Below, piece by piece: positions 49,780 to 64,000 of a stretch of DNA of 64,000 bases. Under the pieces are notes generated by a model, which was not told where the DNA came from, ran no database searches, and saw only the letters and a program-made list of their open reading frames with translations. Source of the DNA: an uncultured Candidatus Saccharibacteria bacterium (GTDB lineage Bacteria > Patescibacteriota > Minisyncoccia > Phycocordibacterales > Phycocordibacteraceae); assembly GCA_964634595.1 (NCBI GenBank), contig CAZWKU010000002.1:4070-68069 (forward strand). The letters are read 5' to 3'. Numbering within the stretch: position 1 is the stretch's first letter; every line of letters begins with the position of its first letter. The translations under genes were made by a program, and so were the position numbers.

Positions 49780-50208
49780 TTACCATTTTCGAAAGATCCG
49801 CAGTATGTGCACCTGCTTGGCGACCTCTGCCAGTGTTTGCCTGCGGGTGATCCAGACTATAAACCCGAGGCACCCAAAACATCCCCAGAGGGCGTAGAGC
49901 GCGACGGTGTGGAGCAGTTCGCTCTTAGGCTCGGCCATATCGCTTATCGCCCACGCGACATTCATGACGATCCACATGAGGGCGCTCGTGTGAACAAGGA
50001 TCGGCACCCACGCGCGTTCAATGTAGTTGAACATGGTAAGCGCAAGGGTTATCGCGGTAATACCCGCGATGTAATTGCCGCTACGCCACTCGAGAAACCA
50101 CGTCGCATCGGTTAAAAGCCAAGAGATACCGCAAGCGAATTCGAGTCGCGCAAGCCGCTCTTCATGCACCGCACCATCCGCAATGAAACATGTGTATTTC
50201 TGAGACAT
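49780..50208 (-). CDS. Integral membrane protein, hypothetical
   Basis: 4 TM helices. Confidence 0.4.
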   Translation of the reverse strand: MSQKYTCFIADGAVHEERLARLEFACGISWLLTDATWFLEWRSGNYIAGITAITLALTMFNYIERAWVPILVHTSALMWIVMNVAWAISDMAEPKSELLHTVALYALWGCFGCLGFIVWITRRQTLAEVAKQVHILRIFRKW

Positions 50209-50496
50209 CTCTTTCTCCCCTCATATAGAGACTAGATGACCAAACACAGGATGACATTAGGCTATGATCGGAAGACTCTAAACATTATTGTATCACACTC
50301 CTGAAAGATGTCAGGCCTGCGGGATCGTCTGCACTGTTTGGCGGGGAAAACGGAGTGACAGGGTTTTAGGCGAATGGGCGATGCTATAGGGGGTAACGAC
50401 ATCATCGCGCTTCGCCCTAGCAGGCGCGCTGTGACCCTACTCGAACCGATTTTGGAGACACTATCTTCAAAAGGCTTCACGGTTGTCTTGCTTTCG

Positions 50497-50583
50497 GCCA
50501 GGAGGAAATGGGGACAGTCACGATTTAAGCTAAGCTGCCAGGAGGAAATGGGAGGAAATGGGGACAGTCACGATTTAAGCTAA
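50497..50583 (+). repeat. Tandem duplication (~40 bp unit) of the RAYT element left end (GCCAGGAGGAAATGGGGACAGTCACGATTTAAGCTAA x2)
   Basis: Direct comparison in sequence. Confidence 0.65.
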
Positions 50584-51315
50584 AATAACGTTGCATAATA
50601 TATTAATGCCCCGTCTTGCTCGCGTTGATGTCGGAAACGAAATATATCATGTCATTAATCGCGCGAATGGTCGCCTCAAGATCTTTGAATCATCACAGGA
50701 TTATCAACTCTTCGAACAGCTTCTTCTTGATGCTCAAGAACTAACCGACATGCGTATTCTCGCCTATGTCATTATGCCAAACCACTGGCACTTGTTGTTG
50801 TGGCCTATGCATGATGGCGATCTCGCACAATTCATGCATCGTCTCTCTAACACCCACACCAGGCGTATGCATACTGCTACCGGCACTATTGGGAATGGGC
50901 ACTTATACCAAGGTCGATACAAATCTTTTCTGGTTGATTCAAACAACTACCTTCTTACGATTATCAAATACATTGAACGCAATCCAGTGCGTGCCAGACT
51001 CTCCAATGCATGTGAAGAATGGCAATGGGGAAGTGCTTGGAGGCGGTCGCAGGGAACCTCAAAGCAAAAGAAACTTATACACCCCTCACCTGAACCGCTA
51101 CCACACCCGTACCTTAAGTGGATAAATACCGCCGAAAAGCCCAATGACCTCTCCATCATACGCGCCTCCGTTAACAAGAACATTCCTTTTGGCAGAGATT
51201 CGTGGGTTGACACAATGATATCCACCTATCACCTAGAGACAACGAAGCGTGGAGTGGGGCGGCCCAGAAAGAATCAGAACACACATTCATCAAAAGAATC
51301 GTGACTGTCCCCATT
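50558..51315 (+). mobile_element. RAYT/IS200-like (HuH Y1 transposase) element copy 1, 758 bp, 19-bp terminal inverted repeats AATGGGGACAGTCACGATT
   Basis: TIRs at 50558-50576 and 51297-51315; near-identical copy at 57578-58336. Confidence 0.75.
50591..51304 (+). CDS. REP-associated tyrosine transposase-like HuH (Y1) transposase
   Basis: HuH motif NHWHLLLW, catalytic Tyr region YQGRYKS, YIERNPVRARL. Confidence 0.8.
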   Translation: MHNILMPRLARVDVGNEIYHVINRANGRLKIFESSQDYQLFEQLLLDAQELTDMRILAYVIMPNHWHLLLWPMHDGDLAQFMHRLSNTHTRRMHTATGTIGNGHLYQGRYKSFLVDSNNYLLTIIKYIERNPVRARLSNACEEWQWGSAWRRSQGTSKQKKLIHPSPEPLPHPYLKWINTAEKPNDLSIIRASVNKNIPFGRDSWVDTMISTYHLETTKRGVGRPRKNQNTHSSKES

Positions 51316-51770
51316 TGTTCCCCCGTATTCGCCCTCCAACACCCGCATGGCTGAAGGCCAAGGGTGGGGGTGAAATAGCGCTGCTCCTGGACTGCACGGA
51401 TAGATGAGGTGCAAGTTCAGTCGGTAACCAGTCCACGGACGTCACAAACGCTCAACGAAAGGTGGATGGTAATTAATAAAAACGGTATTCCACCCTTCTT
51501 CATCGGCAAGTAATTTCTTTAACTCACCTTTGGCTTTATAAAGGACGTCGAGCATCTGTATGCCCTCATAGATTGCCACGTGTACCATACCATTATTATA
51601 CTAAAGTGCAAGCATTGCATCGCTGGCGACCTAATTTTCAAGAGGCGAAGCAACTATGAAAATGGAAGTACTCTTGGGGTGCTAGAGAGCGTTCTGAATC
51701 CTGAGCTTTTCGAAGGAGTACCTTTGTATAAAAGAAAGTCCGCCCATCTCCGTGAGGAAAAGGGCGGGAG

Positions 51771-51980
51771 TCATGGGTTTTTCAGGGGTGGGTCGCTACG
51801 TTTTCTCGCAAGTCGTTTTTTTATCCCGCTCAGTGTTTGGGTGCCGAATACTATGTCGATGCCGACAAAGAACAAGAGCCCAAGCCCGGGGGTCCCGGGG
51901 ACGATGCCCCCGATTGCCCCAATGATGATAGCAACGATGCCGATTGGCTTTCGGGCGATCCGCCACAGTCGAGCCCTCAC
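51771..51980 (-). CDS. DUF454/YbaN-like small inner-membrane protein
   Basis: RKPIGIVAIIIGAIGGIVPGTPGLGLLFFVGIDIVF. Confidence 0.5.
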   Translation of the reverse strand: MRARLWRIARKPIGIVAIIIGAIGGIVPGTPGLGLLFFVGIDIVFGTQTLSGIKKRLARKRSDPPLKNP

Positions 51981-52069
51981 GTAAAGACGCCGTTTTGCAT
52001 TTAGTTTCCTCCTGTTGCTCCGTGATCAATTATATATGGGAATGCATGAATGGTACCTGCGTAATACCT

Positions 52070-52226
52070 AACGCGCCTCCGTTAACAAGAACATTCCTTT
52101 TGGCAGAGATTCGTGGGTTGACACAATGATATCCACCTATCACCTAGAGACAACGAAGCGTGGAGTGGGGCGGCCCAGAAAGAATCAGAACACACATTCA
52201 TCAAAAGAATCGTGACTGTCCCCATT
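52070..52226 (+). mobile_element. Solo right-end fragment (157 bp) of the RAYT element including TIR
   Basis: Near-identical to 51160-51315, including 4 bp of flank (GTTC). Confidence 0.65.
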
Positions 52227-52636
52227 TGTTCATGGCACTCTTTGCTCGCGTTTTTCTCAAGATCAAAGCCGAGCTCTTTACCAAGAGCGTAGACCCTCTT
52301 CGCGAGAGTCACGCCAGCGTTTTGGGCGACATACTGAGCGACAGTGGTGTCGGTGCCACCTGTCACAAATTCTTGTGGCACATACAAGGTGCGGATATGG
52401 CCGCTTTTTTCTAGCGACCCACTGTTCGGTTCGATAACCCCAGCAATTATTTTGAGCAGGGTAGATTTGCCCGAACCATTATCGCCCACGATACATACTT
52501 TTTCGTTTTCAGCACATTTCAAAGTTACCGCCTCAAGGAGCGGTTTTTCAGTAAACGAGTGGCCGATGTTTTTTAATGAAATCGTTTTTGTCATTGAGTA
52601 TGAGGAGCCTAGCAAAAAACACGCTCTTTTACTATC
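52227..52636 (-). pseudogene. Diverged partial duplicate of the abcF 5' end (codes ~122 N-terminal aa) fused to the transposon end fragment
   Basis: ~88% nt identity to 47338-47748. MTKTISLKNIGHSFTEKPLLEAVTLKCAENEKVCIVGDNGSGKSTLLKIIAGVIEPN. Confidence 0.65.
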
Positions 52637-52689
52637 AGCTCTCAAAAAGAAAAGCCGCCCGAGAGCGGCTTTTCGTGTGTGGGCGGGAG

Positions 52690-52830
52690 TCACGGGTTTT
52701 TCGAGGGTGGGTCGTTTTGTTTTCTTGCAAATCGCTTCTTTATTGCGCTCATTGTTTGTGTGCCAAACACCATATCGATGCCAATTTGCATTTAGTTTCC
52801 TCCTGTTGCCCCGTGAGAATTACCTTTGTA
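52690..52830 (-). pseudogene. Internally deleted duplicate of the DUF454 gene region
   Basis: Homology to 51763-51800 and 51985-52030 with the coding middle missing. Confidence 0.4.
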
Positions 52831-53709
52831 CTCGTAGTTCTCGCTGATTTTCCACACACCCTTCTCTCTGAATGCTGGAATATTCTGTCGACGCGCGGCG
52901 TTCGTTATGGCCGATGCAGACTTGGCATGGCTTTTCGTGTACTCGGAAAGGCGAATGACTTTGTCGCCCTTGAGGTAAGCGATGCGTTTATGCAGTGACT
53001 CCATGAGGCCGAGGGAGATAGCTTTTTCTAACGTCTTGGTGTTTTTGTCGTCACGGTAGTCGCCAAACGATTTGTAGTATTCTTTTTTCTCACGGTCCCG
53101 AATAATAATCATCGGGAACCCCAGACGCTGAAGCTGGTAAGAAATAAGCACACGGCCAATACGACCGTTGCCATCGCAGAACGGGTGGGTAGTTTCAAAA
53201 TCTAAATGGAACTTGGCGATCTTGTCTAAAAAGTATGCAGACATATCACTCGTGTATTCGGTGATGGTTGCCTCAATCAGACGCTCAACTTGCTCCGGAG
53301 CCGGAGCGACATGCGTGCCAATACGAACGTATTCACCAGGGGCTCGGAAACGACCTGCAATCTTGTCGTCAATGCCGCCGATCAACATCTGATGTAAAAG
53401 CAGTATGAGCTCTCGGTTTACCTCAGTTTCTTTTGATTTGCCACGAATATATTCGATGACGCGAGCAAGATTTTTTGCCTCATACACCTCGCGCAGGGAA
53501 ACGTCTCGAGCGACCTCCATATCCAAAAGAATCTTCTCAGTCTCCTTGAGGGTAAGGGTGGAGTTCTCGATAGCGTTGGAGTTATAGACGCTCTCCGGCA
53601 CCTCGGCATCGTCGATCATGACCAAAAGCGCGTCCTTGCCTTTGCGAAGGACATCATATTCGGCCTTTAGAGTCTGAATGCGATTTTTGATTGGTTTGGT
53701 TGTAGCCAC
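52792..53709 (-). CDS. Fic/DOC family protein (AMPylator-type) with N-terminal SxxxEN inhibitory-like motif
   Basis: HPFCDGNGRIGR Fic motif; SNAIEN near N-terminus. Confidence 0.85.
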   Translation of the reverse strand: MATTKPIKNRIQTLKAEYDVLRKGKDALLVMIDDAEVPESVYNSNAIENSTLTLKETEKILLDMEVARDVSLREVYEAKNLARVIEYIRGKSKETEVNRELILLLHQMLIGGIDDKIAGRFRAPGEYVRIGTHVAPAPEQVERLIEATITEYTSDMSAYFLDKIAKFHLDFETTHPFCDGNGRIGRVLISYQLQRLGFPMIIIRDREKKEYYKSFGDYRDDKNTKTLEKAISLGLMESLHKRIAYLKGDKVIRLSEYTKSHAKSASAITNAARRQNIPAFREKGVWKISENYEYKGNSHGATGGN

Positions 53710-53889
53710 AGGTGTAAATAGTGCTTTTATAGAGACAGTATAGTCTATTTAGCTCTAAAAGTCAATCTTTAGTGAATAAGGACTAGAAACTACCACTTAT
53801 TCACTAGAATCAACCACCAAGCCCCGCAGGGGGCGGGGTATGGCGTGATGCATGGGCTTAGTGCCAGAGGGTGAGTTTGGGGAGGGTCA

Positions 53890-53942
53890 GTTCGAACCTG
53901 TGAGGTATAGAAAAAGGCCGTGTCCCAAATTGGAACACGGCC
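53890..53942. repeat. Partial member of intergenic repeat family (GTTCGAACCTGTG..TATAGAAAAAGG plus hairpin)
   Basis: Shares 3' half of the motif listed at 54306. Confidence 0.4.
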
Positions 53943-54305
53943 CGTGTTGTATCAGAGACTCGTTCAGTCTCCGCCCCCGCCGCCCCCTCCGGAGTCGCTG
54001 CCGCCCGAATCGTAGCTACCGGAGTCGCTCGGGGAACTGGGCTCATTGTGGTGAGAGCCACGTTCGTGCGAACCGCTGTGCGAAGGTTCGTTGCTCGAAA
54101 GAAGCTGCATCAGAATCATAGTGTTAAGAATACTGCCGTCATCGGAGCAATAGCTTCCGTTCGACTGTTGCACGTATGTACGACCCTGATGGACGACCTT
54201 TTGGGGTCGACTTTTTCTATTTCGATTCACAGAACACCTCTCTGTTTATGGGTGATTACCCCTGAATGAACAGGACGGCAGTATCTTAGCACGCCATACA
54301 CATAT

Positions 54306-54388
54306 TGTCAATATCTAGCCCCGCTGGGTAGAGAACGTTCGAACCTTTGTGTAAAAAGAAAACCGCCCAAACGGACGATCTTCCGTTA
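54306..54388. repeat. Intergenic repeat family member: GTCAATATCTAGCCCCGCTGGGTAGAGAACGTTCGAACCTTTGTGTAAAAAGAAAA plus hairpin
   Basis: Conserved block shared with 56501, 57169, 61251, 61741, 62631. Lies right after the yjjX stop. Confidence 0.6.
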
Positions 54389-54399
54389 GGCAGTCGGAT

Positions 54400-54930
54400 T
54401 TAATTATTCATGTAGTGCTCGAAATGAATGGGTCGCACCAAAGCGCACTGGAGGGCTTGCACCAAGAACTCTTCGCGCTTCAGCTTCCCGCCTGAGAGAT
54501 AGTGCATAGGGTCTTTCTCTCCGCCATAGCCGCGCTTTTTGATGATTTCGCCGAGCTCGCTCTTTTCTGCGAACGTCTGTTCGGCGATGTCCCGAGGAAT
54601 CGGAAACTCTGCCCCGAAGGCAACCGAACGGCCGCCGTTTGAGCCGAGCACTACGATGCACGCTTGATCAAACCACAGGCCGTTGCGCTGGACCAGGCCG
54701 CTCTCAATGCCGATGGCAGCACCAGCATTCTCGACGGCGTTCCAGGCTGCTTGGGCACGATTGCTTGCACCAAGCTCCATTTCTTCAACGCCAACGGGCT
54801 GGATGCTGACACCCGACTCGGATTTGTGGGCGATAATCTCGAAAGGGTATGTCATCAAACTCTTGCACACGCTCTCTACCGCACGAAGCTTCAGAGCGCT
54901 TTCGGTTCCGACAGCAATTCTCATGGTCAT
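54400..54930 (-). CDS. Non-canonical purine NTP phosphatase (YjjX/inosine-xanthosine triphosphatase family)
   Basis: MRIAVGTESALKLRAV N-terminus typical of YjjX. Start set at internal ATG. Confidence 0.65.
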   Translation of the reverse strand: MTMRIAVGTESALKLRAVESVCKSLMTYPFEIIAHKSESGVSIQPVGVEEMELGASNRAQAAWNAVENAGAAIGIESGLVQRNGLWFDQACIVVLGSNGGRSVAFGAEFPIPRDIAEQTFAEKSELGEIIKKRGYGGEKDPMHYLSGGKLKREEFLVQALQCALVRPIHFEHYMNN

Positions 54931-55030
54931 ATGATTCTCCGTTGGTTTATGCTCCATTTCTGGCGGTAGATTGTCATTATATCGCGTATTTGACAAGATG
55001 TCCCGCCTTTTTGCTATACTCTTCATAATC

Positions 55031-55507
55031 ATGAAAATCTATGTCCTTGGCAGCACCCATTTCAAAGTACGGATGGTCGAATGCAAAGAAGAACTTTGCG
55101 CTCTCGGCTACGACGGCTGGATACATCCTCACTATGAAGAGTTTGTGCGGGGCGGGCGGCAAGACCAGGTTGCTCGCTGGACGACAGGCGACCCAACGGA
55201 GCTTGCGAAGATAAAGCGAGAAAACAACTACCTCCACGACCACTATAAGCACATCCTCGCAAGCGATGCGATACTCGTTGTGAATGATGAGAAGAACGGC
55301 ATCAAAAACTACATCGGTGGCAACGTTCTCATGGAGATGGGACAAGCATACGTTAACCATAAGAAGATATTCCTCCTGAACGGCATACCCGAAGGCCTTT
55401 CCTATCTCTCTGAAATAGAGTCCATGGATCCGATCTGTTTGGATGGGAAACTCGGGAACATTAATTTAGGGCAGGGAAGTACACAACGTTCACAAGTTCA
55501 CCTCTAG
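55031..55507 (+). CDS. Nucleoside 2-deoxyribosyltransferase-like protein
   Basis: MKIYVLGS...GGNVLMEMGQA pattern. Start set at internal ATG. Confidence 0.45.
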   Translation: MKIYVLGSTHFKVRMVECKEELCALGYDGWIHPHYEEFVRGGRQDQVARWTTGDPTELAKIKRENNYLHDHYKHILASDAILVVNDEKNGIKNYIGGNVLMEMGQAYVNHKKIFLLNGIPEGLSYLSEIESMDPICLDGKLGNINLGQGSTQRSQVHL

Positions 55508-55607
55508 CTCCGCTCTCTAGAAAACGTTTCCTGTCCTGAGTCAGCGAAGGAGAACCTGCGTATAAAAAGAAAAAGCCCGGCGGTGAAGCAGGGCTTCTCC
55601 GTCGGGC

Positions 55608-55922
55608 TTATGTATTGCAGAGGGCTATCGCCGTCTTCAACCAAGCAAATTCGCATTGCGGGACCCCGGCATCCTCAATTGTCATTACTAGGTCTGCTAG
55701 ATTAAGTATGTCGAAATCCCCCGCACTCCCCTTAATCTGAAGCAACGCATCACAAGTTACTTTTTCAAGCTTTTCTATTGTTTCAAAACCCGCCTCAATA
55801 AGAAGAGCTGGTGTTGTCTCGTCTTCGAACTTGAGAGTATTCAGATGAGTTGATGCTGTGCTCACAGTTGTCTCCTTTAGAACTTTCAATACCAGTATGA
55901 CACCAGTGTTTGAGTCTGTCAA
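55608..55922 (-). CDS. Hypothetical protein (non-ATG start, weak)
   Basis: ORF only, TTG start, no clear RBS. Confidence 0.2.
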   Translation of the reverse strand: MTDSNTGVILVLKVLKETTVSTASTHLNTLKFEDETTPALLIEAGFETIEKLEKVTCDALLQIKGSAGDFDILNLADLVMTIEDAGVPQCEFAWLKTAIALCNT

Positions 55923-56009
55923 TACCTACATAATGGTTCTATAGCTTGGCACCACCCGCTAATACCAAAATAAATCGATAATCTGCGGTGTCCGTGTAAA
56001 CTACTTGGT

Positions 56010-56414
56010 ATGAAAAAGGACTTTCAGCGGTGGACGACGAAGAAAGAACAACTCAATGATACCGAGGGCACAGCCCTTTTCCACGAACGCGAGGTGTGGT
56101 GGTGTGCCCTCGGTGCGAATATTGGCTTTGAACAGGATGGCAGTAGTGAGCTGTTCACGCGCCCCGTCGTCGTACTCTCCAAGTTCAACCTTGATGCGTG
56201 CCTTGTCGTACCGCTAACCGCTAAGCCCAAGAAGGGCAAGTATTACTTCTCGGTGGGCAACGTCTCGGGGCGCGACGCGGTCGCGGTGCTCTCGCAAATC
56301 CGCTTTGTAGACCGTAAGCGGCTGGCTGTGAAGATCGCCACGATGGAACAAGAGACTTTTGATGCACTCACGAAGGTGGTCGTCAAAGCGTGCTTCCCGA
56401 ATCTTACCCCCTAA
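56010..56414 (+). CDS. MazF/PemK-like toxin-fold protein (putative type II toxin), no obvious antitoxin partner
   Basis: EVWWCALGANIGFEQDG...RPVVVLS...VPLT pattern resembling the PemK/MazF SH3-like barrel. Confidence 0.45.
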   Translation: MKKDFQRWTTKKEQLNDTEGTALFHEREVWWCALGANIGFEQDGSSELFTRPVVVLSKFNLDACLVVPLTAKPKKGKYYFSVGNVSGRDAVAVLSQIRFVDRKRLAVKIATMEQETFDALTKVVVKACFPNLTP

Positions 56415-56500
56415 ATGTTTTCTCCCCGCCTTTTACAGCGGGGAGCAGGCCGAAGCCGTTTGTTCAAGTATCATATCAGAGAGCGAGATGAAAAGTCAAT

Positions 56501-57249: not shown

Positions 57250-57482
57250 TTAAGGTGTTTAGCGATTTGCGCATCTTTCGAGTTCTTTGATCGCCCATTC
57301 GAGAGCGCTAAGAATAAATCCATCACCGGAAGCGGGGTGCGTCGGGCTTTCACTTTTATGCATCCGCTCAACATGCATTTCACAAGCTTTCTTCAGCCCT
57401 TCTAGAGAGTAAGAGCTTGTCATAGCAGGGTTCCTTCTACTAGTTGGTTCGACGATTACAATACTCTATTTGCTATAAATGT

Positions 57483-57553
57483 CAGCTCCGCGGGTAAGTA
57501 GGCTTGCCCGCTGTCGCCTCGTTCAAAAACAAAAAAGCCCGGCCGGCAGAATG
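57483..57553. repeat. Second repeat family (GCTCCGCGGGTAAGTAGGCTTGCCCGCTGTCGCCTCGTTCAAAAACAAAAAAGCCCG) copy 1, abutting RAYT copy 2 left end
   Basis: 58-bp block identical at 62548-62605. Confidence 0.55.
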
Positions 57554-57577
57554 CAGAATGGGGACAGCAGAATGCAG

Positions 57578-58336
57578 AATGGGGACAGTCACGATTTAAA
57601 TCAAAATAACGTTGCATAATATATTAATGCCCCGTCTTGCTCGCGTCGATGTCGGAAACGAAATATACCATGTCATTAATCGCGCGAATGGTCGCCTCAA
57701 AATCTTTGACTCGTCACAGGACTATCAGCTCTTCGAACAACTTCTTCTTGAGGCTCAAGAACTCACTGACATGCGTATTCTCGCCTATGTCATTATGCCA
57801 AATCACTGGCACTTGTTGTTGTGGCCTATGAATGATGGCGATCTCGCACAATTCATGCATCGTCTCTCTAACACCCACACCAGGCGTATGCATACTGCTA
57901 CCGGCACTATTGGGAATGGGCACTTATACCAAGGTCGATACAAATCTTTTCTGGTTGATTCAAACAACTACCTTCTTACGATTATCAAATACATTGAACG
58001 CAATCCAGTGCGTGCCAGACTCTCCAATGCATGTGAAGAATGGCAATGGGGAAGTGCTTGGAGGCGGTCGCAGGGAACCTCAAAGCAAAAGAAACTTATA
58101 CACCCCTCACCTGAACCGCTACCACACCCGTACCTTAAGTGGATAAATACCGCCGAAAAGCCCAATGACCTCTCCATCATACGCGCCTCCGTTAACAAGA
58201 ACATTCCTTTTGGCAGAGATTCGTGGGTTGACACAATGATATCCACCTATCACCTAGAGACAACGAAGCGTGGAGTCGGGCGGCCAAGAAAGAATCAGAA
58301 CACACATTCATCGAAAGAATCGTGACTGTCCCCATT
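57578..58336 (+). mobile_element. RAYT/IS200-like element copy 2 (759 bp) with 19-bp TIRs, tandem-duplicated left-end stub upstream (57549-57577)
   Basis: TIRs 57578-57596 and 58318-58336; ~99% identical to copy 1. Confidence 0.75.
57612..58325 (+). CDS. REP-associated tyrosine transposase-like HuH (Y1) transposase, copy 2
   Basis: 3 aa differences from copy 1 (E33D, D47E, H75N). Confidence 0.8.
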   Translation: MHNILMPRLARVDVGNEIYHVINRANGRLKIFDSSQDYQLFEQLLLEAQELTDMRILAYVIMPNHWHLLLWPMNDGDLAQFMHRLSNTHTRRMHTATGTIGNGHLYQGRYKSFLVDSNNYLLTIIKYIERNPVRARLSNACEEWQWGSAWRRSQGTSKQKKLIHPSPEPLPHPYLKWINTAEKPNDLSIIRASVNKNIPFGRDSWVDTMISTYHLETTKRGVGRPRKNQNTHSSKES

Positions 58337-58433
58337 TACTCACCTATCACCTAGAGACAACGAAGCGTGGAGTCGGGCGGCCAAGAAAGAATCAGAACAC
58401 ACATTCATCGAAAGAATCGTGACTGTCCCCATT
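58337..58433 (+). repeat. 97-bp tandem duplication of the element right end (second TIR at 58415-58433)
   Basis: 58240-58336 repeated exactly. Confidence 0.7.
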
Positions 58434-58883
58434 TACTTCATGCAGGAGCTTTTCCACTTCGTCGTTGGTGATTTTGTTCTTGGTGGCGAGTGCTTGCATT
58501 ATCTTGTCCCGCTTCTTGCGTTTGCGATCTTGGATTGCGACGCGGGCTTTGGTGAGCAAGTCGCGGATAGAGTGAGTTTGGGCGGTTGGTACAGGCACCG
58601 TCAAGGACGGCGGCAGGATCGGCTCAGCCTCAGGAGGCAACGGCTCATTTGGCGGTATTTGAGCCGTTTGGGTTGTGGATTGAGCGACCTGAGTTTCTTG
58701 ACGGTCATCCGTCTTAGAAACTGGAAGTGGTCCTTGTGACCCCGTTGCGGGTGTTTGAGGTGCTTCTGTGGGCGCGGGAGGAGTTTCAGGAGGCGTAACT
58801 GGCTCTGCGACAAGAGCGGGAGCTTCAACGGCAGGGCTCGGCGATTCTGGTGCTGGTTGCGGGGTGCTCTCTTCTGGGGGCAT
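58392..58883 (-). CDS. Proline-rich hypothetical protein whose last 14 codons and stop lie in the duplicated transposon end
   Basis: PxxP-rich N-terminus. C-terminal residues NGDSHDSFDECVF are the antisense of the IS right end. Confidence 0.35.
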   Translation of the reverse strand: MPPEESTPQPAPESPSPAVEAPALVAEPVTPPETPPAPTEAPQTPATGSQGPLPVSKTDDRQETQVAQSTTQTAQIPPNEPLPPEAEPILPPSLTVPVPTAQTHSIRDLLTKARVAIQDRKRKKRDKIMQALATKNKITNDEVEKLLHEVNGDSHDSFDECVF

Positions 58884-58924
58884 AGCTCAATTCTAACCCA
58901 TAGATGGGCTGTGCTTCAGGCGAA

Positions 58925-58956
58925 TAACTCAACCCGTTGGGTTATTCGCCTTGAGA
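58925..58956. repeat. Palindromic element GGCGAATAACTCAACCCGTTGGGTTATTCGCC upstream of grpB
   Basis: Perfect hairpin; related copy at 59584-59613. Confidence 0.5.
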
Positions 58957-59004
58957 GATTCTAGAGCATAAGGCCAGCCGTGGTTGTAGTGTTAAACTTT
59001 GCCT

Positions 59005-59538
59005 ATGAACGATGTCGGCTTAAAGCGAGGAACGGTGGAGCTTCGGGAACATAACCCGAAGTGGAAAGAGATTTTTGAAGAGGAGAAACAAATGCTTCTC
59101 GGACATTTCCCCGGCCAGATTCTCGAGGTCTCTCACGGCGGTAGTACTGCGATCCCTAAAATGCCGGCAAAACCTATTATCGACATGTTCGCAGTTGTCC
59201 CAGCATTGCGAGTGGCAGAAGATATGAGAAGCGAGTTAGAAAAGCTTGGCTATCACTATCGTGGTGAGGAGGGGGTGTCGGGAAGAATTTTGTATGCCAA
59301 GGGAGAAGAAGAAAAGCGAACGCATCATCTGCAGCTCGTTGAGCGCGAAGGGGACCAGTGGAAGAACCACCTTCTTATCAAGAACTATTATCTGCAACAT
59401 CCAGAAGTGGCGGAAGAATATGCATTACTTAAGCAGGAGCTGGCGGTAAAGTACCCGGAAAATCGTAGTGCTTATAGCAAAGGGAAAAACGAATTTGTGC
59501 AGGCTGTGATTGCGAAAGCGAAGACTAACGAAGTCTAA
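59005..59538 (+). CDS. GrpB-family (UPF0157) nucleotidyltransferase-fold protein
   Basis: GGSTAIPKMPAKPIIDM, HHLQLV motifs. Confidence 0.75.
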   Translation: MNDVGLKRGTVELREHNPKWKEIFEEEKQMLLGHFPGQILEVSHGGSTAIPKMPAKPIIDMFAVVPALRVAEDMRSELEKLGYHYRGEEGVSGRILYAKGEEEKRTHHLQLVEREGDQWKNHLLIKNYYLQHPEVAEEYALLKQELAVKYPENRSAYSKGKNEFVQAVIAKAKTNEV

Positions 59539-59583
59539 AAAGTATTCGAGAATTGAGGAAATACTAAACACTTCATCGCTTTG

Positions 59584-59613
59584 AGTGAATAACTCAACGG
59601 GTTGAGGTATTCG
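59584..59613. repeat. Palindromic element GAATAACTCAACGGGTTGAGGTATTC downstream of grpB
   Basis: Shares GAATAACTCAAC..GTTG with 58925-58956. Confidence 0.5.
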
Positions 59614-60022
59614 ATGTTTTGCCGAGGAATTCACGAATCATTCGAATATCGTCAAAATCTTTAGGACGGCCATATTCTTGTTTAAAATCCATCAAGCTTT
59701 CAAGAGTGATGAAGGGAATATTTTCTACTATTACTGCGTTCTTCAGTAACTCCTTTGCAGAAATACCGCCAGTTTTCCGACTTAGCTGTACATATAATTC
59801 AATATCTCCTTTCTTGAGCCATTCTTTGCCGGGGATTCCATGTTTAGTCCACGATCGGATTTCCCACCCTTCTTTTTTGCACTTTTCGAATAGTTTAGGC
59901 GTTACCACGATATCGAGATCGTTTGTCTTTCGAATGCCCATTGCAACCATGATTGCACTTCCTACAACGATATATTCGTTGGGCGGGAAATTCAATTCCT
60001 TTATTTCGGCAAAAATATCCAT
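59594..60022 (-). CDS. Minimal nucleotidyltransferase (Pol-beta superfamily NTase domain)
   Basis: VVGSAIMVAMGIRKTNDLDIVV (GS...DxD) motif; AT-rich. Confidence 0.5.
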   Translation of the reverse strand: MDIFAEIKELNFPPNEYIVVGSAIMVAMGIRKTNDLDIVVTPKLFEKCKKEGWEIRSWTKHGIPGKEWLKKGDIELYVQLSRKTGGISAKELLKNAVIVENIPFITLESLMDFKQEYGRPKDFDDIRMIREFLGKTSNTSTR

Positions 60023-60318
60023 TATTTTAGTGTGTAATAGACGGTTTTGCCGATATCGCCGTGCTGGGTGATCTTCCCCTCCTTTTCTAGCTCGTCCAAA
60101 TACCGCTCCGCTGTCGCGTTAGAAACTCCGGCTAGTTTTTCCACATCATTATTCTGAATTTTTCCGTGCTGCTGCACGAACGCGAGAAGCTTCTGCTTGT
60201 TCTCGGCTTTCTGTTCCATCTGCTTGGCGATAAATCCGGCATTCGTGTTTCGACGAGCGATGTACATCCCTAGTGCGATTCCGGCGAGAGCGACGAGGAT
60301 TAAGATAAGATAGTTCAT
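60022..60318 (-). CDS. Membrane-anchored winged-helix DNA-binding protein
   Basis: N-terminal TM helix; C-terminal HTH-like DVEKLAGVSNATAERYLDELEKEGKITQHG. Confidence 0.45.
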   Translation of the reverse strand: MNYLILILVALAGIALGMYIARRNTNAGFIAKQMEQKAENKQKLLAFVQQHGKIQNNDVEKLAGVSNATAERYLDELEKEGKITQHGDIGKTVYYTLK

Positions 60319-60321
60319 GTT

Positions 60322-60912
60322 TTAGTTTCGCTGGATGACAATACCACGATACGCAAAGAATTTCCTGAACTGAGCATAAGGTACAAAGACTCTTTCTTGT
60401 GAGCCGTTTGATTGAAAACCAGATGGGTTATTGATATAGAAACCTCGACTCCTGTCGTCATAACCGACGACCAAAATGAGATGCCCACCACGTTTCGGAG
60501 GATTACTTTCAGGATTTCGTATGTTTGGATGAACGGAAGCAATAACAAAATCGCCCCTACTTATTGCACCTTTGATTTCACAGAAAGAAAGTGCCGGAAT
60601 AGATTTCGCATTCAATCTGTACTCACTGCGGACGAAACTGCAAAACTCCGCATAGTAGAGTGGCGATATCTTCTTATCTTTTATCTTGAAGACTCCATAC
60701 TCTCCTGCCTTCTTTGCGAGCTTCACTAGTGGAATTGAAGCGTACTTTTTATCTCCGGCGGCGAGTATCATTTTAAAACACGCAATACCGCAGTCACTCC
60801 ATGTCCATCGCTCGTATTCGTCTTCATTATCAGCCCCCGACTGCACCCATAAGGGGTCTGTACTTAATGCAACCTCGCCGTGTATATATTTCTCTACTAG
60901 GTCGGCGGACAT
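60322..60912 (-). CDS. C39-like (Peptidase_C39_2) papain-fold cysteine peptidase
   Basis: Nucleophile SDCGIACFKMIL and His GGHLILVVGYDD. The 5' end of the longer ORF (to 60987) runs into an IS remnant; start placed at ATG 60912. Confidence 0.6.
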   Translation of the reverse strand: MSADLVEKYIHGEVALSTDPLWVQSGADNEDEYERWTWSDCGIACFKMILAAGDKKYASIPLVKLAKKAGEYGVFKIKDKKISPLYYAEFCSFVRSEYRLNAKSIPALSFCEIKGAISRGDFVIASVHPNIRNPESNPPKRGGHLILVVGYDDRSRGFYINNPSGFQSNGSQERVFVPYAQFRKFFAYRGIVIQRN

Positions 60913-60947
60913 GAACTGCGAATAGTATGGCGCTTCTACTGACGCAG

Positions 60948-61038
60948 AATGGGGACAGTCACGATTTAAATCAAAATAACGTTGCATAATATATCAGTGC
61001 CCCGTCTTGATCGCGTCGATGTCGGAAACGAAATATAT
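60948..61038 (+). mobile_element. Left-end remnant (~90 bp, with TIR) of a third RAYT element; rest deleted
   Basis: GCAGAATGGGGACAGTCACGATTTAAATCAAAATAACGTTGCATAATATAT...GTCGGAAACGAAATATAT then divergence. Confidence 0.6.
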
Positions 61039-61250
61039 ATCAAGGCTAGGGATGAACACGGTGGGACCGTGGGTACACATTTCTCTCACAAAATAAGTTC
61101 GTCGTCACTCACTTATTTCGCGAGCCGCCTCGCGCGACCCCTCGTGCTCTCGGGGTACCCCGCGCTCGCTTTCGAATCCTACACGAACTGCTCTTGCAGT
61201 TCTCCGCGGAGCACAGAAAAAGCGCCTTTCGGCGCCTCTTCTTTTTCTGT

Positions 61251-61340
61251 GCTCCGCTGGGTAGAAAATGTTCGAACCTTTGTATAAAAGAAAACCGCCT
61301 CGCCAGGAGAGCGACGAGGTCGGTCTCTTGAGCGAGGCGG
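61251..61340. repeat. Intergenic repeat family member (GCTCCGCTGGGTAGAAAATGTTCGAACCTTTGTATAAAAGAAAA plus long hairpin)
   Basis: Preceded by a nested hairpin 61208-61250 (GCACAGAAAAAGCGCCTTTCGGCGCCTCTTCTTTTTCTGTGC). Confidence 0.55.
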
Positions 61341-61343
61341 GCG

Positions 61344-61676
61344 CTAGTCTTCCTTCAGGTTGGCTATCGCTGCTGAAATTGCGGGCTCCAGTTCTCTGGG
61401 CGTATAGATTCTGAAACCCTCGGACATCCAAGCGGTGACACAATTGTTTTTGAAGTTTCCAGCAGCAATAACCGTTTGCATTTTGCTACTGGCGTAGAGG
61501 CCGCTGGCTTGTGCAAGGTCGAGATGACTAACGTGCCACCCAACGTAGAGAGTGTGTTTATTCCCCTCTCCCTTTGCGAGCAAGAATTTACCCAACCCAG
61601 CTCCTTTGCGAGCTTCTTTCCACACGACTTCAATTTCGAGGACTTTCATTTCGGTCTTTTTTGGTTTCCTCACCAC
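61344..61676 (-). CDS. Hypothetical protein
   Basis: ORF; probable start at internal ATG (MKVLEIEVVW). Confidence 0.35.
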   Translation of the reverse strand: MVRKPKKTEMKVLEIEVVWKEARKGAGLGKFLLAKGEGNKHTLYVGWHVSHLDLAQASGLYASSKMQTVIAAGNFKNNCVTAWMSEGFRIYTPRELEPAISAAIANLKED

Positions 61677-61740
61677 TTTGTTAGCGTCCTTGGCGCTGGT
61701 TGGAACATTCGTTATTATCTAAGCACAATATAGAAACGGT

Positions 61741-61828
61741 GTCAATACCTAGCTCCGCTGGGTAGAGAACGTTCGAACCTGTATATAAAAGAAAAACCGC
61801 CCGGAGCGCGGCGGAGACACTCCGGGCG
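61741..61828. repeat. Intergenic repeat family member (GTCAATACCTAGCTCCGCTGGGTAGAGAACGTTCGAACCTGTATATAAAAGAAAAA plus hairpin CGCCCGGAG...CTCCGGGCG)
   Basis: Best-preserved copy; follows the stop of 61839..62465. Confidence 0.6.
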
Positions 61829-61838
61829 CTTCAAGCGG

Positions 61839-62465
61839 TCAGTTCATCGAGCTACGTTGGGCGCTTTTCACTTTGCCCCATATTGAAGCGTGATAGAAAA
61901 GTTCTGCCACCTTCCCGCCTATGCGGAGCGGTTTACGGCTTGAATCCTGCAGACAATTCCAGTTATCGACTTTCGAAAGGAGAGGCTCACGTCGTCCTCC
62001 CTCCATCCACTTGAAGTTCCGGAGGATACTTGCCGCCTGGCTTTTGCTACGGCAGACCGCGAGGTGGAATGCGGAGTTCTCGTCGGCCCAGATGAGAATG
62101 CCTTCTCCTCTTGGGCCCGTAGGTAAGGGTCCCCAGAAACCTCCAAGCTCAGGTGGGGCAAACGCATCGACGCGGGCACCCGCACTCGTCATCGCCACAA
62201 GCATGTTGCCAAGACTGCTACCTGCATCCCCTAAGATTTCGACGACTTCGTCACTTGAAGTCGCGGGGAGTTCAGCAGAGACGCCCGTAAGCTCATCTCC
62301 ATGCTTCAAATTCTTTGTGGTGAGCAGGGATTGAATTTGCTCTTGAGACGAGCATACCCAGAGCCGGAGGTTGGGAGAACTGCCGCTTTCAGTACGGCCT
62401 TCGTCCCACTCGCAATGGGCCACCAAGGGTTGTTGCAAATGGGTCGGTCCAATGGTGAAGAACAC
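61839..62465 (-). CDS. Hypothetical protein
   Basis: ORF only. Confidence 0.35.
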   Translation of the reverse strand: MFFTIGPTHLQQPLVAHCEWDEGRTESGSSPNLRLWVCSSQEQIQSLLTTKNLKHGDELTGVSAELPATSSDEVVEILGDAGSSLGNMLVAMTSAGARVDAFAPPELGGFWGPLPTGPRGEGILIWADENSAFHLAVCRSKSQAASILRNFKWMEGGRREPLLSKVDNWNCLQDSSRKPLRIGGKVAELFYHASIWGKVKSAQRSSMN

Positions 62466-62547
62466 GGAACACCTCTTTGTTTTGAGTTCTATCGTGGACT
62501 ATAATACAAAAATACAAATTTGTCAGTTCGAACAAAATCTATTGCCC

Positions 62548-62620
62548 GGCTCCGCGGGTAAGTAGGCTTGCCCGCTGTCGCCTCGTTCAAAAACAAAAAA
62601 GCCCGATGAGGGCTCTTTTG
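62548..62620. repeat. Second repeat family copy 2, followed by terminator hairpin GCCCGATGAGGGC plus T-run
   Basis: Identical 58-bp block to 57483-57540. Confidence 0.55.
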
Positions 62621-62630
62621 TTTTATTCTC

Positions 62631-62701
62631 TCGGCTCCGCTGGGTAGAGAACGTTCGAACCTGTTTATAAAAAGAAAAGCCACCCAATAAGAGCGGGTGG
62701 C
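62631..62701. repeat. Intergenic repeat family member (GGCTCCGCTGGGTAGAGAACGTTCGAACCTGTTTATAAAAAGAAAA plus hairpin GCCACCC...GGGTGGC)
   Basis: Follows the stop of 62722..63273. Confidence 0.6.
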
Positions 62702-62721
62702 CCTTCAAGGGTGGCGGTAAT

Positions 62722-63273
62722 CTAAGTCATTGGTTTTCTGAGAATCGTTGAGCGTAGCTGCTGCCAGTGACTCTTGAGAAACTGCCAGAACTCGCGCCAG
62801 TCATTGCGAATCCCGCGAATAAATGATGGTTCCTGGAGCCGATATGTCGGCAGTGGGATAACCTCATGCGGGATGCCAAGCCAGTCTTGGTATACGCTCT
62901 TGTAGAGCGCAACGAAGTCTGCCGTGTTTGGACTCTCGATTGCTATTTTGACAACTCGCCGCCCGGGCGTATCGAGTGCTTCAGAAACGTTCGCTTTTGC
63001 TTCCCCGAGCGTGAACATCTTGAAATAGCTTTTACGATAGGCATCTTCAGGAAGACGAGGCAATGTGGTCACCCACATCTCATCCCGCAAGCTAATGACA
63101 TGTGCAGCGAGATGTTCTGTGGGTAGCGAATCATTCAACACTGACCACAAATCGAGTGTGCCGCAGGTTGAGCCGCAGATTCTAGACAAGCGCAAAATTT
63201 TCATAGAACTTCTCCTTTCGCTCTGCCGTGGCTTTACCACGGTCAGGCCATAGGCGCGCCAACATTGACGCAA
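62722..63273 (-). CDS. Hypothetical protein
   Basis: ORF only. Confidence 0.35.
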   Translation of the reverse strand: MRQCWRAYGLTVVKPRQSERRSSMKILRLSRICGSTCGTLDLWSVLNDSLPTEHLAAHVISLRDEMWVTTLPRLPEDAYRKSYFKMFTLGEAKANVSEALDTPGRRVVKIAIESPNTADFVALYKSVYQDWLGIPHEVIPLPTYRLQEPSFIRGIRNDWREFWQFLKSHWQQLRSTILRKPMT

Positions 63274-63592
63274 AATAAGTCTAGCATATTAAAATACTTT
63301 TGTCAATCTTTTGCTCCCCATTGCGGCCAAGTTCAGAATGGCAGATTGGGTACAGATTGAGCGCGACCTTCAATACAGTGGTCTCCTGTCATCGCCGTTC
63401 TTCGCAGATTTGACCTACGCATAAAGCGCATTTCATTGAGACAGGTTCAGAACTATTCGACTATGGTATGCTGGACACATGAACAAGATACCCCCGCAGG
63501 TTCTCTTCTTTTCAGGACAGATGCCACGTGAGGCAATCACTCAAACGAAAAAAGAAGGGCAACAAGCGGAACAATCAACAAAAGAAGTTCGG

Positions 63593-64000
63593 TTAGCTTA
63601 TACTGATAAGCACTTCGCCATCGGGGACCTTGCACTCGCGCACCTCTTGAATGACACCCTTGTCCTTCGCAAAAGTTAGCATTTTCGACTCACCCTTTTT
63701 GAACAAGCCCTCCATTTCCTCCTTGGTCATTTTCGTTTGCGAAGCAATGATGCCAGCTATCTTATCTTGGTCCGTGCTCAGTCGACTATCTATCTCCTGA
63801 ACTGCGGCCAAGTTCAACGTAGCCCCTTGCTGTAGGTTTACTCCGACCCCATGAAAGAGAAAGCTGCTGTTTTCAACGGCATACCTTTCTGCACCTGCAA
63901 CGAAAATAACAGTTGCGATTGAGTCGATGGAACCGATGTTGTGCATCACGGCCTTGACGGGCAAACTCTTGAGGAAGTTGTAGAGCGTGATGCCAGAGGA
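63593..64000 (-). CDS. ClpP-family (S14) serine peptidase, C-terminal part (N-terminus beyond window)
   Basis: IGSIDSIATVIFVAGA (Ser region, compare GQAASMGAFLLAAGA) and FLFHGVG (His region, compare IMIHQPLGG). Confidence 0.55.
   Translation of the reverse strand, partial: SSGITLYNFLKSLPVKAVMHNIGSIDSIATVIFVAGAERYAVENSSFLFHGVGVNLQQGATLNLAAVQEIDSRLSTDQDKIAGIIASQTKMTKEEMEGLFKKGESKMLTFAKDKGVIQEVRECKVPDGEVLISIS

Follow-up and report, generated by a model that had tools for sequence, protein, structure and literature searches.

The final part of the 64,000-nucleotide stretch of uncultured Candidatus Saccharibacteria DNA analysed here (contig CAZWKU010000002.1, positions 4,070 to 68,069; hereafter the window), i.e. 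the region from ~50.2 kb to ~64.4-64.7 kb in window coordinates, is an accessory genomic island anchored at a gene for tRNA-Asn(GTT). The island contains an array of co-oriented repeats that mimic the 3' end of this tRNA, differs between strains by one precise gain or loss of DNA at the heptanucleotide GCGGAGC, shares its architecture with loci elsewhere and has been invaded by an insertion sequence (IS)-like element. Our preferred explanation, to which we assign a probability of about 0.65, is serial accretion, in which mini-cassettes were added one after another at tRNA-Asn by a site-specific recombinase acting in trans. The original prediction for this DNA, made from its letters alone, had described an accessory, compositionally deviant and mobile-element-rich region, and this description stands, with tRNA adjacency and strain-level gain and loss now added to it; its further proposals, a horizontally acquired integrative element or a defence island, are considered below.

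Composition and extent of the island

Positions 1-50200 of the window carry ordinary core genes, i.e. recN/SMC, glutamate dehydrogenase, RNase II, trmD, rpoB, rpoC, dnaG, rpoD, hisS, two GH130 genes, bacA, a cytochrome oxidase operon, VIT1, truB, an ABC-F ATPase, lexA and dinB; amongst 185,579 species genomes the nearest relatives of this DinB occur in metagenome-assembled genomes (MAGs) of Candidatus Kaiserbacteria / Parcubacteria, the best being MFKU01000005 at 82% amino-acid identity. The window is on this ground assigned to a bacterium of the candidate phyla radiation (CPR), and the island to a Candidatus Kaiserbacteria (Parcubacteria) chromosome. GC content is 0.527 over this core and 0.488 over 50201-64000, the latter being the minimum among all 13.8-kb windows, and 5-kb windows of the island lie at tetranucleotide L1 distances of 0.23-0.29 from the core (z = 5-8), compared with 0.141 +/- 0.018 (maximum 0.193) for 5-kb windows of the core itself. 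The AT-richer block predicted after ~50.2 kb is thus borne out, and composition is non-uniform in both GC and tetranucleotides, uniformity being the result named beforehand as counter-evidence. Coding density, from a crude set of open reading frames (ORFs), is 77% in the island and 94% in the core, intergenic GC is 0.47 in both, and coding GC is 0.492 in the island against 0.531 in the core, a difference that lies mainly at codon position 1; the fall in GC is therefore due partly to lower coding density and, for the remainder, to lower coding GC. GC at codon position 3 (GC3; 0.527 in the island, 0.570 in the core, Mann-Whitney p = 0.08) was discarded as a marker of foreign origin, being marginal only, with GC1 and coding density explaining much of the drop.

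The compositional signal is a mosaic, in which the C39-like, NTase-like and orf104 genes and the transposases are AT-rich, and YjjX, PemK, orf208 and Fic have host-like GC3. The two intervals singled out by the original prediction as visibly AT-rich, 59594-60318 and 60322-60900, indeed correspond to the AT-richest genes: the C39 gene has a GC of 0.438 and a GC3 of 0.419, and an antisense ORF (59619-60071) that largely coincides with the NTase-like gene has a GC of 0.40. Fifteen of the 20 island genes are on the minus strand and the majority encode fewer than 250 amino acids, in agreement with the predicted run of small, mostly same-strand, functionally unrelated genes; promoter-like sites number 28, against 13.2 +/- 3.3 in shuffled sequence. 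The interleaving of transposase copies and repeats was likewise correctly foreseen. All eight copies of a 16-mer from the transposase ends fall within 50.5-61.0 kb (0.05 expected by chance), and all four matches to a 25-mer of a second repeat family fall within 54.3-62.7 kb (0 expected), with weaker copies reaching 53.9 kb, such that both families are restricted to the block beyond 50.2 kb.

The tRNA-Asn anchor and strain variants

No tRNA gene was found inside the window (ARAGORN). The anchor is provided by contigs of the same population, drawn from three ENA assemblies and two Logan runs and recovered by exact-protein look-ups. One of these, L093, is 100% identical to window positions 63094-64000 and then extends past the window end. 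Its extension comprises the start of the ClpP-like gene, a transposase-end fragment of 57 nt, a further 70 nt and then an intact tRNA-Asn(GTT) on the minus strand at a window-equivalent position of ~64409-64485, so that the island ends ~0.4-0.7 kb beyond the window; on the far side of the tRNA lie a winged-helix regulator, fmt, def, murA-like, mreB, holB and frr. A variant junction in another contig, L004, would shift the tRNA by an additional ~0.2-0.3 kb. The prediction that the island continues past the window end is accordingly right for about 0.4-0.7 kb and no further, and the integrase, portal or capsid genes that it proposed to look for beyond 64 kb are absent from L093, which has tRNA-Asn and core genes there.

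In a second contig, L001, the core is 99.96% identical to that of L093 over 7.2 kb, and tRNA-Asn is joined directly to window position 61279, with homology running down to 58439 through the C39-like, winged-helix, NTase-like, GrpB and Pro-rich genes; L001 thus lacks the 3.1-kb segment between 61280 and the tRNA. The switch point lies inside the T-arm of tRNA-Asn, at a copy of an intergenic repeat that we call the module (see below). The empty site in L001 reads CCTACCC-GCGGAGC-ACAGAAAAAG, the tRNA side of the insert in L093 reads CCTACCC-GCGGAGC-CCACACTAGG, and the far side, at 61251-61279 of the window, reads TCTACCCA-GCGGAGC-ACAGAAAAAG; these three junctions locate the exchange within the 7-nt GCGGAGC common to the tRNA and its pseudo-copy, with the tRNA remaining intact. 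Neither arrangement is chimeric, since the shared sequence is far below the assembly k of 141 and each is supported by an independent contig (L002 for the window type, L001 for the alternative). The tRNA-Asn genes of L001 (7146-7218) and L093 (7911-7987) differ by one variable-loop base (GAGTAGG versus GAGTTGG), one of only ~3 differences in the 7.2 kb of core. In L004 (positions 1-113) the ClpP-like cassette is joined, via a perfect 15-nt tRNA-Asn end, to a second copy of window 61068-61165, which implies either that a segment of ~215 nt, hairpin-X (Table 1), occurs twice, flanking the polymorphic 3.1 kb, or that the contig contains a circle or tandem junction of window ~61061-64423.

Population contigs cover 39780-50973, 52682-56493, 54176-58674, 60221-62426 and 62635-64000 at 99.9-100% identity. 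Near-identical cover by these contigs is missing for ~50974-52681 (transposase copy 1 to the ABC-F fragment) and for ~58675-60020, the latter being covered solely by the variant L001, at 97.6% identity overall. Across 80 relatives found through DinB only lexA and dinB stay together, both flanks vary, and none of these species carries the island cargo near lexA-dinB; synteny therefore cannot separate island from core at species-level distance. The variable presence that the original prediction looked for in relatives is thus seen between strains, in the absence of the 3.1 kb from L001, whilst the comparison of species is uninformative.

Boundary modules and the cassette array

At least nine boundaries on one strand, between 53.9 and 62.7 kb, split the island into units of 0.25-4 kb. 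Each is formed by a conserved module of 45-60 nt, consisting of a terminator T-run and a pseudo tRNA-Asn 3' end, often with a promoter, that mimics the T-loop and 3' acceptor strand of the tRNA (consensus TTTTCTTTTATACAAAGGTTCGAACGTTCTCTACCCAGCGGAGC); the aligned minus strands read ...TTTTCTTTTATACAAAGGTTCGAAC[A/G]TT[T/C]TCTACCCAGCGGAGC..., the corresponding 3' end of the tRNA itself being AGGTTCGAATCCTACCCGCGGAGC. When the whole window was scanned on both strands by gapped local alignment with the last 26 nt of tRNA-Asn, the five full module copies took ranks 1-5, all on the minus strand, i.e. that of the tRNA. A sequence model built from these five copies and one from another genome (L099, see below), model R1, was used to score the copies in Table 1, and gave an additional weak match at 51709-51745. 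A second type of module resembles tRNA-Asn from the anticodon stem to the 3' end, and three module copies run directly into near-identical sigma-70-type promoters (TAGGTATTGACA...GTGCTnAGAT; TTGACA-N17-TAAGAT and similar). The module had no Rfam match above threshold. Its palindrome GTTCGAACGTTC was rejected as a LexA box, as the lexA promoter holds a different palindrome (see below), and its identity as a phage attP was rejected for lack of exact matches in viral contigs.

Read along the minus strand from the tRNA, the units comprise a transposase-end fragment with the ClpP-like gene and orf183 (unit 1); a terminator-only stub (2); a promoter with orf208 (3); a promoter with orf110 (4); hairpin-X, a transposase 5' fragment, the C39-like/winged-helix/NTase-like genes, GrpB, the Pro-rich gene and transposase copy 2 (5); a promoter with the 54-aa ORF (6); a promoter with orf195 (7); PemK and orf104 (8); orf157 and YjjX (9); a promoter with the 88-aa Gly/Ser-rich ORF (10); and Fic with a small membrane-protein remnant (11).

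The same architecture occurs in other genomes. An exact-pattern scan of JGI metagenomes gave, among the matches listed, one other contig, L099, which has no further DNA similarity to the window. In L099, directly after a tRNA-Asn gene (2438-2510), lie a promoter (TAGACA-N17-TAGGAT), a pair of small ORFs, a terminator and a module copy with 94% identity to that at window position 61251, after which a histidine-phosphatase (core) gene lies on the opposite strand; L099 therefore holds exactly one cassette between tRNA-Asn and its mimic. In the Adlerbacteria MAG L058, R1 matched at 12139-12182 and 12660-12696, where the two copies lie downstream of the host tRNA-Asn (4589-4661) and share its orientation; the interior of these modules (GTTCGAAC[A/G]TCCTCTATC) fits the module consensus and not the host T-stem, whilst their 3' end (TCGCGCGGAGCA) tracks the host acceptor end. 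This pattern in L099 and L058 indicates that the module is an element-type sequence travelling between genomes, rather than a local duplicate of the host tRNA.

Proposed mechanism and alternatives

Under serial accretion, very small cassettes would have been inserted repeatedly at the 3' end of tRNA-Asn, newer arrivals pushing older ones outward. A typical cassette would span 0.25-0.9 kb, with a sigma-70-type promoter of its own, a single small ORF, a terminator hairpin and a 45-60-nt tRNA-mimic end; recombination within the 7-nt GCGGAGC of the real tRNA and of the mimic would preserve the tRNA and deposit the mimic, as a scar, on the far side of the insert. For the 3.1-kb unit the predicted circle junction is ...GGTTCGAACATTTTCTACCCA-GCGGAGC-CCACACTAGG... 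We infer the order of insertion, the site-specific catalysis and the trans-acting enzyme, the recombinase not being encoded by the island. At least five later invasions by the Y1 (HUH) element have truncated genes, and partial duplication of the ABC-F and small membrane-protein genes has added to the decay.

Several observations weigh against this scheme, and some of them fit instead a native hypervariable region, in which the module would be a host terminator/promoter-upstream element, its likeness to tRNA-Asn incidental or co-opted, and in which ordinary homologous or microhomology-mediated recombination and duplication between repeats would suffice with no dedicated cassette mobility. An integrase or other site-specific recombinase was found neither in the window nor in L001, L093, L099 and the examined parts of L058. 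The hairpin-X duplicate suggested by L004, flanking the polymorphic 3.1 kb, could permit ordinary homologous recombination or deletion, and the strain difference could alternatively be a deletion between direct repeats. Three modules continue into near-identical promoters, and the real tRNA of L099 is followed by a promoter of the same type; segmental duplications (again the ABC-F fragment and small membrane-protein gene) are present; and much of the cargo has host-like GC3, making foreignness weak for many genes, from which donors would probably be close relatives. The likeness to the tRNA is itself imperfect: the similarity scores of 29-34 compare with shuffle maxima of 21-30, each copy being borderline, and insertions of 5 nt and 1 nt mean that only identity blocks of 7-9 nt are shared with the tRNA. 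The copies moreover form one repeat family and so are not independent evidence, the module has been seen in a small number of genomes (at least three, i.e. the window population, L099 and L058), and the left (distal) island end, somewhere in 50.2-53.9 kb amid transposase copies and duplications, has no clear module copy. We nonetheless regard a purely native origin as unlikely. The module is 80-94% conserved among otherwise dissimilar genomes (L099, L058), always co-oriented with and downstream of tRNA-Asn, and is absent from 50 kb of core rich in promoters and terminators; the L001 junction uses the 7-nt core only, yet restores a perfect tRNA; tetranucleotide usage in the block departs strongly from that of the core; and the cassette ORFs are ORFans or belong to rare families.

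The reading of the block as one integrative element, prophage remnant or defence island, with the ClpP-like gene as a prohead protease and phage or integrase genes beyond the window, draws on the deviant composition, on Fic matches to PADLOC candidate models, on ClpP-like homologues (71-85% identity) that lie on phage-like contigs and on weak matches of this protein to head maturation proteases (PHROG/phage), as well as on PHROG matches, to entries without known function, of the NTase-like and C39-like proteins. It is largely refuted by L093, in which tRNA-Asn and core genes follow the ClpP-like gene and no portal, capsid, terminase or integrase is present. Within the 64-kb window there is no integrase or recombinase domain in any island ORF or elsewhere, and no conjugation, mobilisation or phage structural module, the lone ClpP-like gene being the only candidate; at least nine att-like boundaries, and the independent presence or absence of an internal 3.1 kb, are further at odds with a single element. 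Location of the ClpP-like gene in a prophage was rejected, this being the sole gene common to the island and the phage-like contigs (L097, L098, L100, L101), and its homologues and head-protease matches suggest that it is probably a phage-derived remnant or moron; the original suggestion of a prohead protease thus retains its phage-like homologues and loses the expected neighbours. In a PADLOC scan of 10 island proteins Fic gave the only meaningful match, matches of the small winged-helix protein being confined to the helix-turn-helix portions of several models, and the PemK-like protein had neither an antitoxin nor a PADLOC match. The island is therefore not a defence island, its cargo being a miscellany of stand-alone genes, and we judge a single element of any of these kinds to be quite improbable. 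A chimeric join of repeat-rich fragments in assembly is more improbable still: short-read contigs do end wherever a transposase copy occurs, and also at several module copies, so that some other means must have been used to bridge the 64-kb window, but independent contigs (three ENA assemblies, two Logan runs) match it at 99.9-100% identity across the listed junctions, and the far-side core flank (L093) comes from the same population, at 99.96% identity to L001.

Transposase copies and decay

The 16-mer repeats of the island belong to an element with a Y1 (HUH) transposase gene, flanked by inverted ends of 19-26 nt (AATGGGGACAGTCACGATT), of which two full and three partial copies were found, one of the latter, a 5' fragment, lying just past the window end. 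In copy 1 the left end is tandemly duplicated (50501-50533 and 50551-50583) and the inverted right end lies at 51297-51322; the short-read contigs L005, L006 and L007 all break at this copy. The 16-mer copies all lie at element ends, and none occurs in the 50-kb core. Being multi-copy and strain-polymorphic, the element behaves like an insertion sequence. The Y1 transposase was set aside as the cassette recombinase: its ends (GGGGACAGTCACGATT) bear no relation to the tRNA-like module and are found solely at genes or fragments of the transposase.

The Pro-rich gene, truncated by copy 2 in the window, is intact in L001 (9586-10152), where it encodes a C-terminal winged-helix domain; the two alleles are identical for 272 nt and thereafter ~80% identical with indels, i.e. 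a recombination mosaic. This winged-helix part resembles that of the membrane-anchored protein at 60022-60318. The first ~14 codons of the C39 ORF (60946-60987) are the antisense of a transposase left-end fragment, and translation probably begins at an internal Met, or else the gene has acquired a new 5' end. The Pro-rich truncation, the transposase fragment abutting the ABC-F duplicate and the antisense start of the C39 ORF together indicate that the island is a sink for IS activity and decay.

Cargo genes

The features of the island are collected in Table 1. Amongst the predicted gene identities, Fic, PemK/MazF, YjjX, GrpB, C39, ClpP-like and two Y1_Tnp genes were supported by Pfam, and the nucleotidyltransferase (NTase) by motif only.

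Table 1. Genes, modules and transposase-related features of the island, in window coordinates
Feature	Position	Strand	Evidence and remarks
IS-like copy 1	50501-51322	+	Y1 (HUH) transposase 50591-51304, 237 aa; Pfam Y1_Tnp E = 3.7e-16
Small membrane-protein ORF, 69 aa	51771-51980	-	Direct repeats and sequence reading
Solo transposase 3' fragment, 161 nt	52071-52231	+	Abuts ABC-F fragment; 100% identical to 51160-51320
ABC-F ATPase 5' duplicate, truncated, ~150 codons	52233-52693	-	87-88% DNA identity to neighbouring 46189-47700 (blastn); partial Pfam ABC_tran
Degenerate paralogue of the 69-aa ORF	52681-52816		Directly downstream of Fic; ribosome-binding site and start shared with the 69-aa ORF
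Fic, 305 aa	52792-53709	-	Pfam Fic E = 3.9e-19; own promoter-like site 53765-53737
Partial module	53878-53918	-	T-run and CACAGGTTCGAAC; R1 match 53890-53918, E = 0.015
88-aa Gly/Ser-rich ORF	53964-54230	-	Single-ORF cassette; no family
Module with promoter TTGACA-N17-TAAGAT	54283-54371	-	T-run, pseudo tRNA-Asn 3' end (AGGTTCGAACGTTCTCTACCCAGCGGGGC); R1 65 bits
YjjX/NTPase_I-T ITP/XTP pyrophosphatase-like	54400-55032	-	Pfam E = 1.6e-29; NCBIfam matches under equivalog cut-offs
orf157, 157 aa	55034-55507	+	Divergent from YjjX
Weak gapped module	55504-55578	-	Downstream of orf104; R1 21 bits, E = 2e-4
orf104, 104 aa	55608-55922	-	No family; GC 0.438
PemK/MazF-fold protein, 134 aa	56010-56414	+	Pfam PemK_toxin E = 9e-12
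Partial module	56507-56538	-	T-run and ACACAAAGGTTCGAA, then orphan promoter-like site 56499-56470; R1 E = 3e-5
orf195	56568-57155	-	Single-ORF cassette; no family; probably 180 aa with start 57109
Module with promoter TTGACG-N17-TACCAT	57142-57230	-	R1 54 bits
54-aa ORF mini-cassette	57259-57423	-	Own promoter-like site 57485-57458; gene called in L090
Type-2 pseudo-tRNA module, 57 nt	57485-57541	-	Ends ...AACGAGG...GCCTACTTACCCGCGGAGC; 100% identical to 62549-62605
IS-like copy 2	57572-58438	+	Transposase 57612-58325; 95-97% identical to copy 1; extra right-end copy 58415-58430
Pro-rich protein gene	58392-58883	-	C-terminal winged-helix domain cut off by transposase element
GrpB-family protein	58999-59538	+	Pfam E = 1.4e-44
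AT-rich three-gene operon (C39-like, winged-helix, NTase-like)	59594-60987	-	
NTase-like protein	59594-60022	-	GS-x10-DLD motif
Membrane-anchored winged-helix protein	60022-60318	-	
Peptidase_C39_2 (C39-like peptidase)	60322-60987	-	Pfam
Solo transposase 5' fragment	60944-61037	+	
Hairpin-X	61061-61250		Bidirectional terminator hairpin and inverted tRNA-like piece TTCGAATCCTAC (61171-61182, +)
Module carrying strain breakpoint	61246-61304	-	L001 homology ends 61279; core GCGGAGC
orf110	61344-61676	-	Single-ORF cassette
Module with promoter TTGACA-N17-TTAGAT	61716-61805	-	R1 69 bits
orf208	61839-62465	-	Single-ORF cassette; own promoter-like site 62526-62498
Type-2 and type-1 modules, back to back	62549-62687	-	Type 2, 62549-62605; type 1, 62630-62687
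orf183	62722-63273	-	No family; tRNA-proximal unit 62722-64000
ClpP-like serine protease (CLP_protease), partial in window	63593-63964, runs past window	-	Full length 187-197 aa

The Fic protein carries the active-site motif HPFCDGNGRIGR (HxFx(D/E)GNGRxxR type) and, in its translated N-terminus, an inhibitory SNAIEN motif ((S/T)xxxE(G/N)), and by these motifs and Pfam would be a putative Fic AMPylase of the class with an N-terminal inhibitory helix; its PADLOC matches are PDC-S04 (a candidate system; 1e-32) and SoFic (2e-25). For YjjX, metagenome gene callers chose a start giving 176 aa. The PemK-like protein scored only 25 bits against NCBIfam MazF (cut-off 120), and the ORF list holds no adjacent antitoxin partner, upstream orf104 being divergent on the minus strand and only a terminator lying downstream. 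PemK/MazF-fold homologues (40-48% identity) lie between or beside lexA and dinB in three related genomes (L016, 3181-3552; L036, 9146-9508; L070, 6855-7217), which suggests a recurrent link between an orphan PemK toxin-fold gene and the SOS cassette.

In the NTase-like protein the motif VVGSAIMVAMGIRKTNDLDIVV fits hG[GS]x9-13Dh[DE] and DUF6036 is a sub-threshold match (E = 0.04); no PDB match was found by sequence, and a single-sequence AlphaFold model (predicted local distance difference test, pLDDT, 43) was too poor for a fold search. For orf157 there was no match in Pfam, NCBIfam, PADLOC, PHROG or PDB. orf110 is an ORFan whose sole match among 5.8 billion proteins is itself, and mobility of its cassette could not be traced through homologues, there being none to offer a second context. 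orf208 belongs to a family of ~200-aa proteins of unassigned function with 43 cluster representatives at E < 1e-3 among 1.8 billion. The full-length ClpP-like protein scores 51.8 bits against Pfam CLP_protease (cut-off 20.2); its best PDB match is 9uxt, 'Clp protease' (2e-17), canonical ClpP structures matching only at E ~ 1e-6. The phage-like contigs on which its closest homologues lie hold Cpn60, NinG, lysozyme, an SU10-type adaptor or a PG_binding_1 domain; three that carry a lone ClpP-like gene, L097 (Logan SRR29078263, 41 kb, GC 0.415), L100 and L101, may be phages of Parcubacteria.

Comparison with known systems

In Prochlorococcus, serial integration of tycheposons at a tRNA pushes older elements inward and leaves partial tRNAs (bioRxiv 10.1101/2020.12.28.424599), and these tRNA-seeded islands of streamlined marine cyanobacteria appear to be the closest published parallel. 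Shared features are tRNA adjacency, co-oriented partial-tRNA repeats, a position of newer inserts nearest the tRNA (proposed for the present island), strain-level gain and loss confined to the island, small accessory cargo and a streamlined host with few classical mobile elements. Compared with the paper's description of tycheposons, the present island has partial-tRNA arrays but no hallmark genes (integrase, replication/packaging) by Pfam, and thus neither a tyrosine/serine recombinase nor a replication module; its units are of 0.25-0.9 kb, with one ORF and their own promoter and terminator, and its repeat is a conserved mimic with fixed insertions, shared across genera, rather than a plain tRNA copy. 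Of the features by which tRNA islands are classically recognised, tRNA adjacency, deviant composition, variable presence and mobility genes (the Y1 transposase) are present; as regards bounding direct repeats from the tRNA 3' end, at least nine co-oriented tRNA-like repeats lie inside the island, one of them at a proven strain junction, and there is no clear copy at the distal end (50.2-53.9 kb).

Cis-mobilisable elements (CIMEs) are integrase-less, att-flanked elements that a related integrative element mobilises, in cis or in trans, as in accretion of streptococcal integrative and conjugative elements (ICEs). The units described here are likewise integrase-less, att-flanked and in tandem at a tRNA-type site, but are an order of magnitude smaller, and no resident ICE or integrase partner was identified. 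With integron arrays and clusters of attC sites lacking integrases (CALINs) they share short, mostly single-ORF, co-oriented and unrelated cassettes and a recombination-site-like repeat of ~50-60 nt, and with CALINs also many ORFan cassettes, some toxin-type genes and no adjacent integrase. Unlike in those systems, the repeat is tRNA-like and not an attC hairpin, the cassettes have their own promoters and terminators, and the array starts at a tRNA gene rather than at attI/intI; a conserved palindrome of the attC type was not seen in the module alignment, which had no Rfam match and no accompanying integrase, although no formal attC covariance model was run. Finally, a Y1_Tnp (HUH) gene flanked by inverted short repeats recalls RAYT and IS200/IS605-family elements, but whereas RAYTs are typically single-copy, domesticated and accompanied by dispersed repetitive extragenic palindromes, here two full and three partial, strain-polymorphic copies lie in ~14 kb of the 64 kb seen.

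Other observations in the window

The lexA-dinB pair lies within 10 kb of tRNA-Asn in 4 loci of the 80 relatives (L015, L047, L058 and L085) and within 10 kb of the tmRNA gene in 7 (L021, L022, L024, L031, L036, L039 and L041); in L058 it lies between tRNA-Asn and the two pseudo-tRNA module copies. Genes for tRNA-Asn and tmRNA are classical integration hotspots, and in lineages with such proximity this SOS cassette may itself be island cargo. Upstream of lexA in the window, at 47737-47800 (+), TAACGAG-N8-AGGTTCGAA has the spacing of anticodon stem to T-loop in tRNA-Asn, is followed by CGACTGTCCCCA, resembling a transposase end, and begins at the very point at which the ABC-F gene and its truncated duplicate cease to be homologous; the tRNA match is weak (score 24, against shuffle maxima of 21-30). 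The variable region may thus begin before lexA. A perfect-armed palindrome, TAGAGCATTTGCTCTA, at 47809-47824 in the lexA promoter (TTGCAT-N17-TATACT) is a candidate LexA operator for the lineage.

Within the core, a 53-nt terminator-containing repeat (14762-14814 and 15715-15767, 96% identity) flanks a GNAT acetyltransferase gene (14815-15462, -) between rpoC and dnaG, and this segment may be another small inserted cassette. A motif of ~38 nt with palindromic ends, CTATCCACTATCT...TAGTGGAT, occurs three times (2435-2472, 3039-3076 and 3673-3710), the copies flanking a gene for a PaaX-like regulator with a Cas2-like middle domain (3091-3666) in a low-GC patch (0.47-0.49). At 25025-25123, overlapping CCGCCACC-type repeats lie in a coding region, with a Gly-rich low-complexity stretch on the opposite strand.

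Implications

For the annotation of such loci there is a warning here, in that Fic, MazF or ClpP-like labels alone do not make a defence island or prophage. Compared with known tRNA-anchored islands, what is new is the combination of no integrase, very small self-contained cassettes and a conserved mimic, in a lineage in which such elements have barely been described. The boundary sequence, common to at least three Parcubacteria-type genomes, provides a handle (model R1 or the pattern GGTTCGAACRTTYTCTACCCAGCGG) with which to search for further arrays, their cargo and the recombinase.

Members of the candidate phyla radiation (CPR), or Patescibacteria, have tiny, streamlined genomes whose acquisition of accessory genes is little understood. 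The locus described here offers a concrete route: a tRNA-Asn hotspot at which very small self-contained cassettes accumulate and are gained or lost between strains with 99.96% identity outside it. We tentatively raise the possibility that CPR Parcubacteria own an integron-like cassette system, in which a ~45-nt tRNA-Asn-mimic att would be acted upon by a recombinase in trans that captures, stacks and excises cassettes at tRNA-Asn. If this is so, such a system would generate arrays of ORFan and stress genes, and perhaps carry lexA-dinB, in genomes thought to be poor in mobile elements.

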